DNA from: an uncultured Selenomonadales bacterium
GTDB taxonomy: Bacteria > Bacillota > Negativicutes > Selenomonadales > Selenomonadaceae
DNA: 64,000 nucleotides
Assembly: GCA_946411735.1 (NCBI GenBank)
Contig: CAMKFB010000002.1
Location: forward strand, 572 to 64,571
Direction: 5' to 3'
A program made the position numbers and the translations under genes. A model generated the notes under the pieces. It saw nothing but the letters and a program-made list of their open reading frames with translations. It was not told where the DNA came from and did no database searches. This document shows, in pieces, positions 17,712-46,400 of this stretch (the stretch's first letter is position 1; the number at the start of each line of letters is the position of its first letter).

Positions 17712-17726
17712 CCCGCCCGCCCGCCC
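17712..17726 (-). promoter_or_regulatory. G-quadruplex motif (GGGCGGGCGGGCGGG on the sense strand), 27 nt upstream of the ATPase start
   Basis: The plus strand reads CCCGCCCGCCCGCCC. Four G3 tracts with 1-nt loops on the minus (mRNA-sense) strand. Adjacent hairpin GGCAGG-TTTCA-CCTGCC at 17729-17745. Confidence 0.6.
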
Positions 17727-17770
17727 ATGGCAGGTTTCACCTGCCAACCAAGAGTAATTGCCGCTTATGT

Positions 17771-17823
17771 TCGAAGTCGCCGCCCACGGTCGAAATCGCC
17801 GCCCGTTGGTCGAAGCCGCCGCC
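17771..17823. repeat. Three tandem ~19-20-bp repeats TCGAARYCGCCGCC
   Basis: tcgaagtcgccgccc (17771), tcgaaatcgccgccc (17790), tcgaagccgccgcc (17810). Spacing is 19 and 20 bp, in the SBP-ATPase intergenic region. Confidence 0.8.
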
Positions 17824-17832
17824 TTTTATTTT

Positions 17833-17881
17833 GAAAAAAATTTTTTCGAGGGTGGGCGGGTGGGACGAAAAAATTTTTTTC
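17833..17881 (-). repeat. 49-bp composite element: A/T palindrome - G/C triplet tract - A/T palindrome (copy 1)
   Basis: G-A7-T6-C (17833-17847), GGGTGGGCGGGTGGG (17850-17864), G-A6-T7-C (17867-17881). It is the reverse complement of the element at 40981-41029. Confidence 0.85.
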
Positions 17882-17908
17882 TCGTCGCCCCCGATATTCT
17901 CCGCGTCC

Positions 17909-19456
17909 TCACGTTTTATCGAGCAGCGACGTGATTTCGTAGTAATCGGAGGGATGCGCCGCAAAGCCCTCGACGTTATTTTTCATCACGAACGACATCT
18001 TAAGATGCGACGCATAGATCAGCGCGCAATCGTCGAGCACCTGCTGACTCATCTTGATCGCCAACGCCGAGCGATCGTCCGCGCCGTAAGTGTTGTGCAG
18101 TTGCTCCTCGAGCGCGGCAATCTCCGCACTGTCGTAATGCCCCGCGTTGTCGACCGCCCCGGGCACGATGTGCGACGTAAAATAATACTCCGGATCGCCC
18201 GTCGGCGCCGTCACGATCGCCTTGCTGAACATATCGTATTCGCCCGTCTTGAGGAAAGTTTTGTAGTTGTCGGTGGCGTTGACGTTGAGCTTGACGCCGA
18301 TCGATTTGAGATTGGATTGCATCATCTCCGCCAACAACGGCAACTCCTGACGCGAGGTGTACGTCAAATAATTGAGCTCGAGATTTTGCCCGTCGCGATC
18401 GACATAGCCGTCGCCGTCGGAATCCGCCCAGCCCGCCTCGTTTAGCAGGCTCCGCGCGGAGTCGAGATCGTATTCGACGGCGTTGACAGTTTGATCGCCG
18501 AAGGGCAGATTGCTCGGGAAGGGACCGACGGCGGGCGTGCCGTTGCCGTGAAGCAGCACATCGGTGAAATTCTTTTTGTCGACCGCCATCGAAATCGCGC
18601 GGCGGACGTTGATATCTTGGAGCGCGGGCGTGTCGAAATTGAAGGCAATCTGATATATCCTCGACGTATCGGTCTGACTGAGTTTGAAGTCGGGCTTGTC
18701 GACGAAAAGTTGAAGGCTCGAATACGGCAGCCCCTGAACCGCGTCGAGCTCGCCGTTTTGCATCGCCATCGTGAGCGTGTCGCCGTCAGTGATACTCTTG
18801 ACGGTAATCCGATCGAGCTTGGGCTTGTCGACGCCCCAATAATTTTCGTTTTTGACCAGCTCGATCTGCGTGTCGGTGACCTTGACGGCTTTGTAAGGAC
18901 CGGTGCCGACGACGATGTGATTGTCGAAGCCGGCGTCGACGTCGATGATGCAGCCGTACGGGTCGCTGAGATAATTCAGCAGCGCGGGCATCTTTTCGGT
19001 CGAGTGAATCGTGATCGATTTCCCCTCGGCGATGATCGAGTCGATTTTGAGATCGGAGGGCGCACGGTCGTGGTTGGCGATCAGGTGTTCGAGGCATTTC
19101 TTGACGGCGGCTCCGTCGACGGGCTTGCCGTTGGAGAATTTGGCATTGGGGTCGATGGTGATTTTGACGGTGAAGTCGTCGATTTGCTCAAAATCGGTCG
19201 CAAGCCACGGCTCAAGTTGCATCGACCGATTGAATTTGAAAAGAGTCTCTCCGATGCCGTAGCGGAGCGTCGACCAGCCGGAGTATGACTCGTGAGGATT
19301 GGTGCCGGCATTCTCCATTGCCACGCCGTAAGCGACAGTGCCGTAGGTGAAAGTCTTTTCGGCGCTCGATTGCTCGACGGCTTGATCGGAGCCGCAACCG
19401 CTCATCATCAATCCGATCGAAACGAGCGCGCCGAGGATTTTCGTTTTGAGTTTCAT
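17909..19456 (-). CDS. ABC transporter substrate-binding lipoprotein, family 5 (NikA/OppA/DppA-like)
   Basis: Lipobox LMMSGC. 515 aa with a typical SBP_bac_5 layout (..WSTLRYGIGETLF.., ..GTGPYK.., ..NENYWG..). SD GGAGG. Confidence 0.9.
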   Translation of the reverse strand: MKLKTKILGALVSIGLMMSGCGSDQAVEQSSAEKTFTYGTVAYGVAMENAGTNPHESYSGWSTLRYGIGETLFKFNRSMQLEPWLATDFEQIDDFTVKITIDPNAKFSNGKPVDGAAVKKCLEHLIANHDRAPSDLKIDSIIAEGKSITIHSTEKMPALLNYLSDPYGCIIDVDAGFDNHIVVGTGPYKAVKVTDTQIELVKNENYWGVDKPKLDRITVKSITDGDTLTMAMQNGELDAVQGLPYSSLQLFVDKPDFKLSQTDTSRIYQIAFNFDTPALQDINVRRAISMAVDKKNFTDVLLHGNGTPAVGPFPSNLPFGDQTVNAVEYDLDSARSLLNEAGWADSDGDGYVDRDGQNLELNYLTYTSRQELPLLAEMMQSNLKSIGVKLNVNATDNYKTFLKTGEYDMFSKAIVTAPTGDPEYYFTSHIVPGAVDNAGHYDSAEIAALEEQLHNTYGADDRSALAIKMSQQVLDDCALIYASHLKMSFVMKNNVEGFAAHPSDYYEITSLLDKT

Positions 19457-19492
19457 AACATCGCCTCCGATCGAAGTATAATTAATCGGCGC

Positions 19493-19516
19493 AAAAAAAA
19501 TAAGCCCCGCGCGGGG
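19493..19516 (-). terminator. GC hairpin + U-run inside the ABC operon (upstream of the SBP gene)
   Basis: Palindrome CCCCGCGCGGGG (19505-19516), followed on the minus strand by CTTA + T8 (19500-19493). A T-rich run on the plus side too, so possibly bidirectional. Confidence 0.55.
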
Positions 19517-44865: not shown

Positions 44866-44903
44866 AATTTCCTTGCAATCATAAGCTATACATAAAATTT
44901 TTG

Positions 44904-44928
44904 GGGGCTCGCGACGCGGGCTCCTTTT
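44904..44928 (+). terminator. Weak terminator candidate after rpsA
   Basis: GGGGCTCGC / GCGGGCTCC stem (two G-U pairs, 3-nt loop) followed by TTTT. Confidence 0.4.
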
Positions 44929-44975
44929 AATGTAAGAGGGGCGGGGTAAAAATTTACAAGGGCAAAATCATTCGA

Positions 44976-46325
44976 GTGCATCCCGATTCGATTGCCGCCG
45001 AGCTCGAGCTGCGCGCGGGCGATTCAATCCTTACCGTCAACGATCAAAATCCGCGTGACATTATCGATTTGAGCTTCGCGCTTGCCGACGAGGAGATCGA
45101 GTTGCTGATCGAGCACGCCGACGGTCGACGGGAGCTGGTTGCGTTCGATAAGGACATTGACGAGGAGCTCGGCGTCGAGTTCGAGTCGGCGTGTTTCGAC
45201 GGCATCAGGCAGTGTCGAAATCGGTGCGTGTTCTGTTTCGTCGATATGATTGCGCCGAATATGCGGCGGTCGCTGTCGATTAAGGACGATGATTACCGGC
45301 TGTCGTTTCTGTACGGCAACTTCATCACGCTGACGAATTTGACGGACGCCGATTTTAAGCGGATTGCGCGGCTGCACCTGTCGCCGCTGTTCATCTCGAT
45401 CCACGCGATCGATCCCGAGGTTCGCTCGACGATGTTGCGGACGAAATTGGCGGCGACGATCGTTGAGCGGCTGGATCGGTTGGAGGCGGCGGGCGTGGAG
45501 TATCACACGCAAGTGGTGTTGTGTCACGGGCTCAACGACGGGGACATTCTCGAGCGGACGATCGAGGAGTTGAGTCGACGGCGCCCGCAATGTTTGTCGT
45601 TGGCGATTGTGCCGGTCGGCGTGACGAAACATCGCCGCGATCCGTTCCCGCTCAATCGCTTCGATCGGGACTCCGCGCGGAGCGTGATCGAGCAGGTTGA
45701 GCGTTGGCAGAAAAAAATCCGTCGGCGCTCACATCAGACGTTCGTGCATCTCGGCGACGAATTTTATTTGATGGCGGGGCTCGAGGTGCCGCCCGAAAAA
45801 TTTTATGACGGCTTCCCGCAACTCGACAACGGAATCGGATTGACGCGCTCGTTTATAAGCGATTGGCAGTCGATCGAGCCGGTGGTCAGTGACGAGCCGA
45901 TGCGGTTGGCGGCGTTGGCGGGGACGTCGATTGCGCCGATCCTGCGACGGTTGGCGGAAGAAGAAATGCGGCGGCGCCCAAATTTATCGGTCGAGGTGGT
46001 GGCGGTCGAGAACAAATTTTTCGGCTCGAGTGTGAATGTGTCGGGGCTGTTGACGGGCGGCGATCTCATTGACGCTGTTCGAGCGCTCGGCGAAGTCGAC
46101 GGAGTGTTGATACCGGAGTCGGCTTTGCGGGCGGGCGAAAATGTTTTTCTCGACGACGTGACGTTGGAAGAACTTCGACGGTCGAGCTCCGCGCGGATCG
46201 AGCCGGTGTTGAGCGGGGCGGATTTTCGACGGGCGCTGTCGGATTTCAATTCCTACAGGAAGGATCGGTCGGAGGAAACGCTTTACACGTGGCAGTCGAA
46301 CGCCGCCTACTCCACGCCCGATTGA
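44976..46325 (+). CDS. PDZ + radical-SAM-like + DUF512 protein
   Basis: ..CRNRCVFCFVD.. Cys cluster and ..LSFLYGNFITLTN... GTG 44976 is the first canonical start, but conserved-looking residues (KGKIIR) are encoded upstream in frame. Confidence 0.8.
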   Translation: MHPDSIAAELELRAGDSILTVNDQNPRDIIDLSFALADEEIELLIEHADGRRELVAFDKDIDEELGVEFESACFDGIRQCRNRCVFCFVDMIAPNMRRSLSIKDDDYRLSFLYGNFITLTNLTDADFKRIARLHLSPLFISIHAIDPEVRSTMLRTKLAATIVERLDRLEAAGVEYHTQVVLCHGLNDGDILERTIEELSRRRPQCLSLAIVPVGVTKHRRDPFPLNRFDRDSARSVIEQVERWQKKIRRRSHQTFVHLGDEFYLMAGLEVPPEKFYDGFPQLDNGIGLTRSFISDWQSIEPVVSDEPMRLAALAGTSIAPILRRLAEEEMRRRPNLSVEVVAVENKFFGSSVNVSGLLTGGDLIDAVRALGEVDGVLIPESALRAGENVFLDDVTLEELRRSSSARIEPVLSGADFRRALSDFNSYRKDRSEETLYTWQSNAAYSTPD

Positions 46326-46327
46326 TC

Positions 46328-46356
46328 TTGACGCGCGCCGCGCCGATTGATAGAAT
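46328..46356 (+). promoter_or_regulatory. Sigma-70-type promoter
   Basis: TTGACG (46328-46333), 17 nt, TGa-TAGAAT (46348-46356). Confidence 0.55.
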
Positions 46357-46385
46357 TTTAATCACGGTTCCTGATAAGGACCAAA

Positions 46386-46400
46386 GGGCGGGTGGGCGGG
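46386..46400 (+). promoter_or_regulatory. G-quadruplex motif GGGCGGGTGGGCGGG in the 5' UTR, 24 nt upstream of the start
   Basis: Four G3 tracts with 1-nt loops, followed by AG-A7-TC-GGGAGGG-CTTGGT-TTG. Confidence 0.6.

Follow-up and report, generated by a model that had tools for sequence, protein, structure and literature searches.

A Dispersed Intergenic Repeat with a G-Quadruplex Motif at Its Core in a Selenomonadales Genome and Related Assemblies

G-tracts and genes in the window

Four perfect tracts of the form (G3Y)3G3 lie in a 64-kb stretch of DNA from an uncultured Selenomonadales bacterium (family Selenomonadaceae; GenBank assembly GCA_946411735.1, contig CAMKFB010000002.1, positions 572 to 64,571; 64,000 nucleotides, here called the window). 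Three of them stand shortly before start codons. A first-pass annotation had taken this arrangement as a sign of translational control by a G-quadruplex (G4) or, as a second option, of a mobile cassette in the 5' untranslated region (UTR). We observed that the tracts belong to a dispersed family of short intergenic modules, and we describe here its anatomy, its distribution, and the readings that it permits.

Two of the three genes share one ABC transporter operon, which consists of a permease (start 22518), a second permease, a substrate-binding protein (SBP; 17909-19456), and an ATPase (start 17684) with a Pfam ABC_tran match. The third gene (46425-47201, plus strand) lies downstream of a DUF512 radical-SAM gene and encodes a protein of 258 residues to which no Pfam family could be assigned at E ≤ 0.001. 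Alignment of orthologues supports the starts at ATG 17684, ATG 22518, and TTG 46425. An in-frame GTG at 46392, inside the G-tract, could be miscalled as the start of the last gene; its orthologue in L103 supports TTG 46425 (L-numbers denote loci fetched from other genomes). The genome has a G+C content of 56%, and no tRNA or tmRNA gene was found in the window.

The module copies with perfect tracts and the signals around them are given below. Bit scores and E values are those of R1, a covariance model built from ten Dehalococcoidia/"Deltaproteobacteria" copies and one Selenomonadales copy.

17701-17752, minus strand: module copy 1, left arm of an inverted doublet, with hairpin GGCAGGTGAAACCTGCC (17745-17729), G-tract GGGCGGGCGGGCGGG (17726-17712), and tail AGAAAAA; R1 44.4 bits, E 6e-11, full length
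17771-17823, no strand assigned: three tandem ~19-nt repeats, consensus TCGAAGTCGCCGCCCGACGG; TRF period 19, 2.7 copies
17826-17895, plus strand: module copy 2, right arm of the doublet, antisense to the operon, in the order A7T6 (17834-17846), CGA, GGGTGGGCGGGTGGG (17850-17864), ACG, A6T7 (17868-17880), C-rich box CTCGTCGCCCCC; R1 38.8 bits, E 3e-09 (match 17826-17876)
22545-22578, minus strand: module copy 3, single, in the permease 5' UTR, with a weak hairpin, GGGCGGGTGGGTGGG (22560-22546), and ATCAA; R1 22.1 bits, E 0.00036
22581-22609, minus strand: promoter-like site TTAAAA-17 nt-TATGAT, upstream of copy 3; an equivalent site, without a G-tract, is present in L001
46328-46356, plus strand: sigma-70-like promoter TTGACG-17 nt-TAGAAT, with TG, 10/12; conserved in L103, which has no module
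46355-46412, plus strand: module copy 4, single, in the 5' UTR of the gene at 46425, with hairpin GGTTCCTGATAAGGACC (46366-46382), AAA, GGGCGGGTGGGCGGG (46386-46400), and AG-A7; R1 26.6 bits, E 1.6e-05

A pattern search of the window returned exactly four perfect GGGNGGGNGGGNGGG tracts, at 17712-17726 and 22546-22560 on the minus strand and at 17850-17864 and 46386-46400 on the plus strand. All four are intergenic, and all 12 of their loops are C or T. They are canonical intramolecular G4 motifs, (G≥3 N1-7)x4 on one strand, of the one-nucleotide-loop type to which the first pass had assigned them. Perfect GGGYGGGYGGGYGGG tracts numbered 4 in the window versus 0 in 100 dinucleotide-preserving shuffles; when up to two mismatches were allowed, there were 10 matches versus 0.93 expected. 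The intergenic DNA of the window holds no short-loop G4 motifs besides those listed here.

The claim that (G3N1)3G3 precedes three genes thus held up, as did the particulars that went with it. Copy 1 is followed by the Shine-Dalgarno (SD) sequence AGAGAGG and, 27 nt from the tract, by ATG 17684; copy 3 is followed by T9 (22540-22532), the SD GGGAGGA, and, again at 27 nt, ATG 22518; copy 4 is followed by the SD GGGAGGG (46412-46418) and, at 24 nt, TTG 46425. The downstream contexts are those described: AGAAAAA..., ATCAA-T9-GGGAGGA, and AG-A7-TC-GGGAGGG. The linker between the G4 motif and the SD is 11 to 14 nt long and A/U rich, and the motif does not overlap the SD. A promoter scan recovered both of the promoters that had been predicted, at 22609-22581 (minus) and 46328-46356 (plus), so that two motifs lie in likely 5' UTRs. 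The latter promoter puts copy 4 at the 5' end of its transcript, and in both promoter-proximal copies the hairpin falls within about 10 nt of the predicted transcript start. With the G-quadruplex option of ViennaRNA on, each of the three UTRs is predicted to contain a G4 in its minimum-energy fold. G:C duplexes could compete with a G4 in the copies at 17712 and 17850.

The fourth motif, at 17850-17864, is antisense, as had been reported, but it is not an aside. Copies 1 (17701-17752, minus) and 2 (17826-17876, plus) form a head-to-head doublet, with the tandem ~19-nt repeats in the 73-nt spacer between them. Hence, the motifs at 17712 and 17850 are the two arms of one element. The cores of the doublet can pair at 13/15 positions in a read-through transcript. 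Because the two AnTn runs of copy 2 are inverted repeats, its G-tract is the loop of an AT-rich palindrome; an alternative pairing of this tract with the C-box is possible.

The window also contains imperfect copies of the module and a second kind of repeat, type A.

40986-41034, minus strand: degenerate copy A6T7-CAA-GGGCGGGCGGGCGTG-ATG-A7T6, one mismatch; R1 26.5 bits, E 1.7e-05
34757-34784, plus strand: three-tract variant with hairpin GCGACTAAGCCGC, C, GGGCGGGTGGG, and ATT; R1 weak, 8.5 bits
37532-37561, plus strand: three-tract variant with hairpin GCGGCTAAGCCGC, C, GGGCGGGTGGG, and ATTAA; R1 weak, 10.6 bits
34650-34728, plus strand: type-A GC-rich imperfect palindrome GGGGCGCCGCCGACGC...CCCACCC...GCGTCGTCGGCGCCC; inverted-repeat pairs found
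37400-37480, plus strand: type-A copy, ~80 nt, internal CCCACCC tracts
41033-41112, minus strand: type-A copy, ~80 nt, internal CCCACCC tracts

The degenerate copy, whose fourth tract is broken (GTG, within 40998-41012), lies antisense between PilN-like and PilO-like genes (Pfam) and adjoins a type-A repeat. The variant at 34757-34784 abuts the stop codon of a minus-strand radical-SAM gene, and that at 37532-37561 abuts the stop codon of a minus-strand RodA/FtsW gene. Three-tract versions lie at 34771-34781, 37546-37556, and 41002-41012; the first pass had placed the first of these correctly and the other two slightly off, at 37549-37559 and 41003-41013. Type A is the usual direct 5' neighbor of the G-module, and it also stands beside G-modules in L004/L005, L013, L078, and L083. 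The two together form a mosaic like a bacterial interspersed mosaic element (BIME).

A dispersed family and its anatomy

The module is ~50 nt long and consists of a 5- to 8-bp hairpin with a 3- to 4-nt loop, 0 to 4 nt, GGGYGGGYGGGYGGG, and an A-run that is often followed by a T-run. When the GTDB species-representative genomes were scanned with GGGYGGGYGGGYGGGANNAAAAA, at least 96 stretches matched. At least 22 of the matching stretches are in one Selenomonadales metagenome-assembled genome (MAG), ERR1278103_bin.24. Other listed matches are in the MAG RGIG4916, in "Dialister sp. RUG005," and in a large group of Dehalococcoidia/"Deltaproteobacteria" MAGs, with a few in Oscillospiraceae/Faecalibacterium and Streptomyces. 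No perfect motif was present in 174 kb of other, more distant Selenomonadaceae contigs. The same pattern gave 0 matches in 2.9 million IMG/VR viral contigs, and there is thus no sign of a phage origin.

For ERR1278103_bin.24, about 17 of the 22 listed matches are within 60 nt of a contig end, and one module bridges the overlap between the end of L079 and the start of L082. The contigs of this MAG (CALGGP01) with matches are L007, L021, L023, L025, L026, L029, L036, L041, L059, L072, L079, and L081 to L084. Short-read assemblies seem to break at the modules, whether because these are repeats or because coverage drops at G4/homopolymer runs.

The flanks of the tract are held in common by the copies: the hairpin ends 0 to 4 nt before the tract (about 8 to 11 nt in some lineages), and an A-run follows it. 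A perfect stem of ≥5 bp ending 0 to 4 nt before the tract was found in 36/103 copies (35%) versus 218/2480 control positions (9%), and these 36 strict hairpins comprise 26 different stem sequences. A strong GC-rich hairpin ~8 to 11 nt ahead of the tract was seen in L010 (Candidatus Faecalibacterium intestinavium), L016/L044 (Chloroflexota), L087, and L088; in L087, a hairpin and T-run that make a normal-looking terminator lie ahead of the G-tract.

Model R1 finds five of the window copies, with E values down to 6e-11, and has 120 matches in 716 kb of fetched loci. In the R1 alignment, 89% of the cells of the 7-bp stem are paired, versus 70% in shuffles and 42 to 63% when the partners are slid, and changes on both sides of the stem occupy 132 cells versus 45 expected; for these counts, the alignment had been fitted to the model. 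Three anchors independent of the core were also used: AnTn...AnTn pairs, the hairpin GGTTCCTGnnAAGGAMC, and the hairpin AGGTGAAACCT. All three lead into four intact G3 tracts, except at 40998-41012 in the window, where the copy has decayed. Where copies deviate from the pattern, they do so in their loops only (A, CA, TT, TAT), as in GGGTGGGAGGGTGGG, GGGTGGGCAGGGTGGG, GGGCGGGTGGGTATGGG, and GGGTGGGTTGGGTGGG. Decay does occur, in the window copy just named and in GGGCGGATGGGCAGG of L005. Variation confined to loops, together with covariation of the stem, points to structural constraint rather than decay. These patterns of sequence lead us to infer that folding into a hairpin plus G4, whether as single-stranded DNA or as RNA, may belong to the element's own propagation or recognition.

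Within the window's lineage, subfamilies can be told apart. In type B, a perfect 17-bp AT-rich palindrome carries the G-tract as its loop, and after it comes a C-rich box able to pair with the tract; the AnTn...AnTn anchor always encloses a G-tract core. The type-B runs are mirrored (A7T6 facing A6T7) in 6/8 copies and are direct repeats in none; hence, they are inverted repeats, and we rejected the idea that the AnTn flanks are a target-site duplication. Inverted arms are a property of type-B copies (17 bp) and of doublets; single copies have neither. The hairpin CACGGTTCCTGnnAAGGAAC defines another subfamily, to which the window copy at 46386 belongs together with copies in L029, L065, and L083.

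The window is rich in AnTn runs more generally. AAAAAWTTTTT occurs 11 times versus 0.05 expected, at sites that include 17834-17880, 19519-19529, 39217-39227, 40982-41028, and 60193-60203, and A4+T4+ occurs 19 times, T4+A4+ not once.

A longer version of the element, ~110 nt with three G-blocks, is present in the Dehalococcoidia/"Deltaproteobacteria" MAGs (L014, L022, L033, L035, L048, L052, L055, L060, L066, and others). Its order is GGGGnGGGG, AAAAGAGAGTTTTAGAGGCnnAGCCTCTATA, GGGCGGGTGGGTGGG, AAGAAAAAC-n5-TTTAAAA, GGGGnGGGG. Pairs of it, inverted or tandem, are frequent, and several copies can lie within 8 kb.

The family matches nothing that we could find described. Neither the window nor 18 loci gave any Rfam 15 match at the gathering threshold, and scans of two module regions by E value returned only chance-level microRNA and unrelated families. 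The literature searched held no description of the family: the exact 15-mers returned only aptamer and human G4 work, and searches on G-quadruplex with Dehalococcoid* or Selenomonas returned nothing relevant.

Orthologous sites, orientation, and spacing

A leader that belongs to its gene should be conserved upstream of orthologues. We compared the three sites with those of relatives whose neighboring proteins are 83 to 90% identical. At the permease site, L001/L002 from MAG RGIG4916 (SBP 83% identical) keep the promoter and the ribosome-binding site (RBS) and have CGACGGAGATTTTTTGTTTGGAGGA between them, with no G-tract; L004 to L006 (84% identical) have a ~130-nt GC-rich repeat instead. RGIG4916 does have the family at other loci (L019, L057). 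At the site of gene 46425, L103 (DUF512 protein 85% identical) keeps the promoter TCTTGACGCGCGCCGCGCC-ATTGATAGAAT, and its leader is the 23-nt CGATCGCAAAGGAGTGATTGACG, which lacks the hairpin, the G-tract, and the A-run and runs into the conserved TTG GAC.

The ATPase site is the most variable of the three. In L162 (SBP 89% identical), the SBP stop codon is followed by the 12-nt GGAGGCGCGCCG and ATG (spacer 4570-4583), whereas the spacer between the SBP and ATPase genes in the window is 224 nt long. Relative to L162, then, the window spacer in its entirety is inserted DNA, and this DNA contains the SD used at the ATPase gene (AGAGAGG). L161 (90% identical) has other sequence at this site, and L001 (11549-12631) and L163 (3407-4449) have ~1.05 kb of tandem ~220-nt composite GC-rich repeats. 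This spacer (window 17685-17908) is thus hypervariable; the L001 version contains an assembly gap.

Upstream conservation was found at 0/3 sites, and promoters and start codons are kept in relatives at the orthologous sites that lack the G-tract. The motif is therefore not a conserved feature of these genes. Where filled and empty sites could be compared, the junctions are replacement-like, with at best a 3- to 4-nt ATC repeat. We conclude that the G-tracts are probably not conserved gene-specific translational switches.

The first-pass annotation had also called the distance from G4 to SD conserved. Enrichment at a set distance from the SD and start exists and recurs in related genomes. Among 31 evaluable Selenomonadales copies, 8 have an SD, a start codon, and an open reading frame 23 to 27 nt downstream on the same strand (P≈4e-9), where random intergenic placement and orientation would put a start at this distance with p=0.0125. 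For the perfect window copies, the figure is 3/4 (P≈8e-6). A run of A or T beside the SD was found in 7/54 window genes, 3 of which are the G4 genes; it is thus not a general RBS feature of the genome, a possibility that we rejected, and its scarcity at other window SDs indicates that the run belongs to the element. The spacing of 23 to 27 nt follows from the fact that the A/U-rich tail of the module directly abuts the SD. Insertion preference, selection for insertions that leave the RBS open, or recruitment by the host are all possible causes of the accumulation at the RBS.

Specificity for the sense strand or the 5' UTR did not survive the wider survey. A sense orientation upstream of coding regions is confined to the 8/31 Selenomonadales copies above, and about 10/31 are antisense, with the A/T tail directed toward the stop codon, 41 to 65 nt away, of a gene on the opposite strand. 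The same holds for the window copies at 17850 and 40998, which lie 44 and 49 nt from the stop codon. In the other phyla, all orientations relative to flanking genes were seen, as judged there by a crude and noisy gene caller that takes the longest open reading frame. Neighboring copies ≤400 nt apart were head-to-head in 12 cases, tandem in 7, and tail-to-tail in 0; in the head-to-head arrangement the hairpins face inward and the A/T tails point outward to the flanking genes.

Other features of the window were noticed. A palindromic 10-mer, TCCGCGCGGA, mostly embedded in CTCCGCGCGGAG, has 23 occurrences versus 0.62 expected (0 of 100 shuffles), the majority inside coding regions; example sites are 1014, 8056, 10370, 14710, 17305, 18451, 21094, 27606, 31032, 46188, and 63529. 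It has the look of a highly iterated palindrome or of a signal akin to an uptake sequence. Two exact 300-nt direct copies (49931-50230 and 50458-50757, 527 nt apart) lie in a region of RTX-like (GGxGxD-type) repeats, and 5158-9828 encodes a 1556-residue repeat protein.

Competing explanations and significance

What, then, are the (G3Y)3G3 tracts? We favor, with a probability of about 0.6, the reading that they are the core of a short, apparently mobile, nonautonomous intergenic repeat that resembles either the repetitive extragenic palindromes REP/REPIN/BIME or the miniature inverted-repeat transposable elements (MITEs). The argument for mobile-repeat behavior is that the modules are multicopy, lineage restricted, and insertion polymorphic, lie on both strands, form doublets and mosaics, and prefer the spacer after the SBP gene. 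Under this reading, the three "UTR" copies would be insertions that survived between a promoter or upstream cistron and the RBS, and at the ATPase gene the inserted DNA itself would provide the RBS now used. An effect on expression would most likely be a by-product of insertion. The hairpin near the 5' end and the G4 motif 11 to 14 nt from the SD lead us to expect stabilization of the mRNA 5' end, or no effect, rather than masking of the SD. The mobile cassette mentioned as a second option in the first pass comes close to this; conserved translational control, its other option, lacks comparative support.

The likeness to REP/REPIN/BIME elements, which in Proteobacteria are mobilized by REP-associated tyrosine transposases (RAYTs), is considerable. 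Both are short extragenic hairpins with an adjacent conserved linear motif, present in many copies per genome on both strands, polymorphic between close relatives, arranged in inverted doublets (12 head-to-head and 0 tail-to-tail here) and in mosaics with other repeats, and favored, in ABC operons, in the spacer that follows the substrate-binding gene. The linear motif here is the 15-nt (G3Y)3G3, whereas that of REP is the tetranucleotide GT[AG]G, and no GTAG 5' of the palindrome is visible in the aligned copies. Within a genome, the hairpin here varies greatly in sequence; the small parts of genomes that were read contained no RAYT gene; and the hosts belong to the Negativicutes, the Chloroflexota, and other groups, not to the Proteobacteria. 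Since the GTAG motif is missing and no RAYT gene or insertion sequence (IS) was identified in the DNA read, we regard the family as REP/REPIN-like in working and do not file it as a member. With MITEs and with the Correia (Neisseria), ERIC, and BOX elements it shares small size, lack of coding capacity, dispersal, an inverted-repeat architecture in some of its copies (17-bp arms in type B), and insertion between promoter and gene with supply of expression signals, as at the ATPase RBS in inserted DNA. It differs from MITEs in that no target-site duplication is readable and no parent IS element was seen in the DNA read, that the unit is only ~50 nt, and that the hairpin stems are not uniform.

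Repeated G4 motifs have precedents. In Escherichia coli, 23/52 G4 motifs fall into two near-identical groups, HPG1 and HPG2, all intergenic and often in opposite-strand pairs (Kaplan et al. 2016, PMC5100583), and rPQS of the Methanomicrobiaceae is a repeated G4 motif with an adjacent C-rich tract (Chashchina et al. 2021, PMC8044849). Like these, the present family consists of identical or near-identical G4 motifs found only between genes, on either strand and often in opposite pairs, with an adjacent pairing segment (the type-B C-box or the doublet partner) that would allow a switch between G4 and hairpin or duplex. The loops here are single pyrimidines versus 2 to 4 nt in E. coli. The family is further set apart from HPG1/HPG2 and rPQS by a separate, covarying hairpin ahead of the tract and by its A/T-run tail, by the quarter of its copies that stand at a fixed distance from a start codon, and by R1-detectable modules in several phyla.

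The remaining explanations assign the motif a function in place. It is doubtful that a sense-strand G4 in the 5' UTR tunes translation initiation, possibly in response to K+, or stabilizes the 5' end of the mRNA, and dedicated translational control is, on present evidence, a minority reading. Engineered SD-masking G4s (Wieland and Hartig, 2007) and engineered G4s near the RBS (Holder and Hartig, 2014) reportedly modulate expression in E. coli, and natural RNA G4 candidates are said to have come from bacterial rG4-seq (Shao et al., 2020). The copies at 22546 and 46386 look like such regulators, with a sense-strand motif upstream of the SD in a probable 5' UTR below a predicted promoter. The significant spacing to start codons, the A/U-rich linker that always separates G4 and SD, the G-tracts kept intact while loops alone vary, and the predicted G4 in all three minimum-energy UTR folds are also consistent with this idea. 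The G4 motif, however, neither includes nor abuts the SD, and it is not conserved with the gene: it is missing from the orthologous UTRs of all three genes despite the kept promoters and starts. Most copies are outside 5' UTRs, and the same module occurs antisense and at gene 3' ends. The ATPase copy is an arm of a doublet whose C-rich partner can pair with its G-tract at 13/15 positions in a read-through transcript, and no theme is evident among the three genes beyond two sharing one operon.

It is unlikely that the modules are punctuation at the level of DNA or transcription, that is, a roadblock, a terminator or antiterminator, an R-loop or supercoiling element, or a target for a nucleoid protein or G4-binding protein, in which a hairpin and G4 with AnTn bends or a cruciform would mark gene boundaries with little regard for gene orientation. 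Classical REP/BIME elements have boundary roles of this kind, and the strictly intergenic, stereotyped placement at gene boundaries, tails toward the nearest end of an open reading frame, would suit such a role, as would the antisense copies beyond stop codons, the type-B palindrome with its mirrored runs, and the excess of AnTn over TnAn. Removing the G4 and A-run from several copies leaves a terminator-like series of A-run, hairpin, and T-run. As they stand, no hairpin has a U-run immediately after it, whichever strand is read: the G-tract comes next, any T-run begins ≥20 nt farther on, and the scans called no terminator at the modules. A terminator or roadblock would be harmful at the two copies that stand between a gene and its promoter. 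We therefore rejected an intrinsic terminator or attenuator as the primary explanation. No binding protein can be named, and orthologous sites do without the element, so that it is dispensable there. A family of structured noncoding RNAs or riboswitch-like aptamers, in which a GNRA-type hairpin stacked on a G4 would be kept across phyla to act in trans or bind a ligand, is very unlikely. The covarying stem, the recovery of window copies by a model built mainly from other phyla, and the ~110-nt Dehalococcoidia version with three G-blocks would fit; the covariation alignment, though, had been fitted to the model, no Rfam family was found by gathering or E-value threshold, gene orientation, promoters, and terminators are inconsistent, neighboring genes are unrelated, and copies form inverted doublets and tandems. 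That the motifs are an artifact of chance or composition is next to impossible: only the moderately high G+C content speaks for it, and it is refuted by the shuffle and mismatch counts and by the recurrence of the pattern dozens of times in related MAGs, as well as by the intergenic placement and the hairpins and tails in common.

Several points weigh against a mobile repeat. No transposase or RAYT gene was found in the small parts of genomes that were read, and no clean target-site duplication is readable at the filled and empty sites compared. Between the copies of L055, the one distant inverted pair that was examined, lie a tRNA synthetase gene and some small, unrelated open reading frames; these are ordinary genes, and we rejected the idea of an autonomous element between the two copies. 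The external loci were retrieved by a pattern of perfect tract plus A-run, and statistics on copy number and tails outside the window are biased accordingly. Hairpin sequences vary greatly within one genome, more so than in classical REP and MITE families, and such diversity could also arise if each site had been selected for a function on its own. Enrichment directly 5' of SDs is not predicted by a purely selfish repeat and leaves room for a role in translation or mRNA stability. The resemblance of modules from several phyla could also stem from convergence on a function and not from a mobile element in common.

Of all G4 motifs, those with one-nucleotide loops are the most stable class. G3N1 motifs are reported to be rare in bacterial genomes and to have been depleted there by genetic instability (PMC6614823). 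In the present family, a pyrimidine-loop G4 motif is the invariant core of a repeat, with 4 perfect copies in 64 kb, dozens in related MAGs, and similar modules in several phyla. Such modules remodel 5' UTRs and spacers within operons, and in one case here supply the RBS; they can be mistaken for gene-specific regulators, and they coincide with contig ends in short-read metagenome assemblies. If folding of the G4 is integral to spread or recognition, the mobile-repeat reading would make this a natural, abundant bacterial G4 system and a new flavor of REP/REPIN-like element. Still bolder, and offered tentatively, is the possibility of a previously undescribed cross-phylum family (Negativicutes, Dehalococcoidia, "Deltaproteobacteria" MAGs, and some Oscillospiraceae) whose selected and mechanistically essential feature is a parallel three-tetrad G4 stacked on a duplex. 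That structure could be recognized by a dedicated single-strand DNA transposase, helicase, or recombinase, or it could be an RNA device recruited repeatedly by the host directly upstream of RBSs. Either way, if true, some bacterial lineages would actively propagate a class of G4 that is otherwise rare in bacterial genomes.

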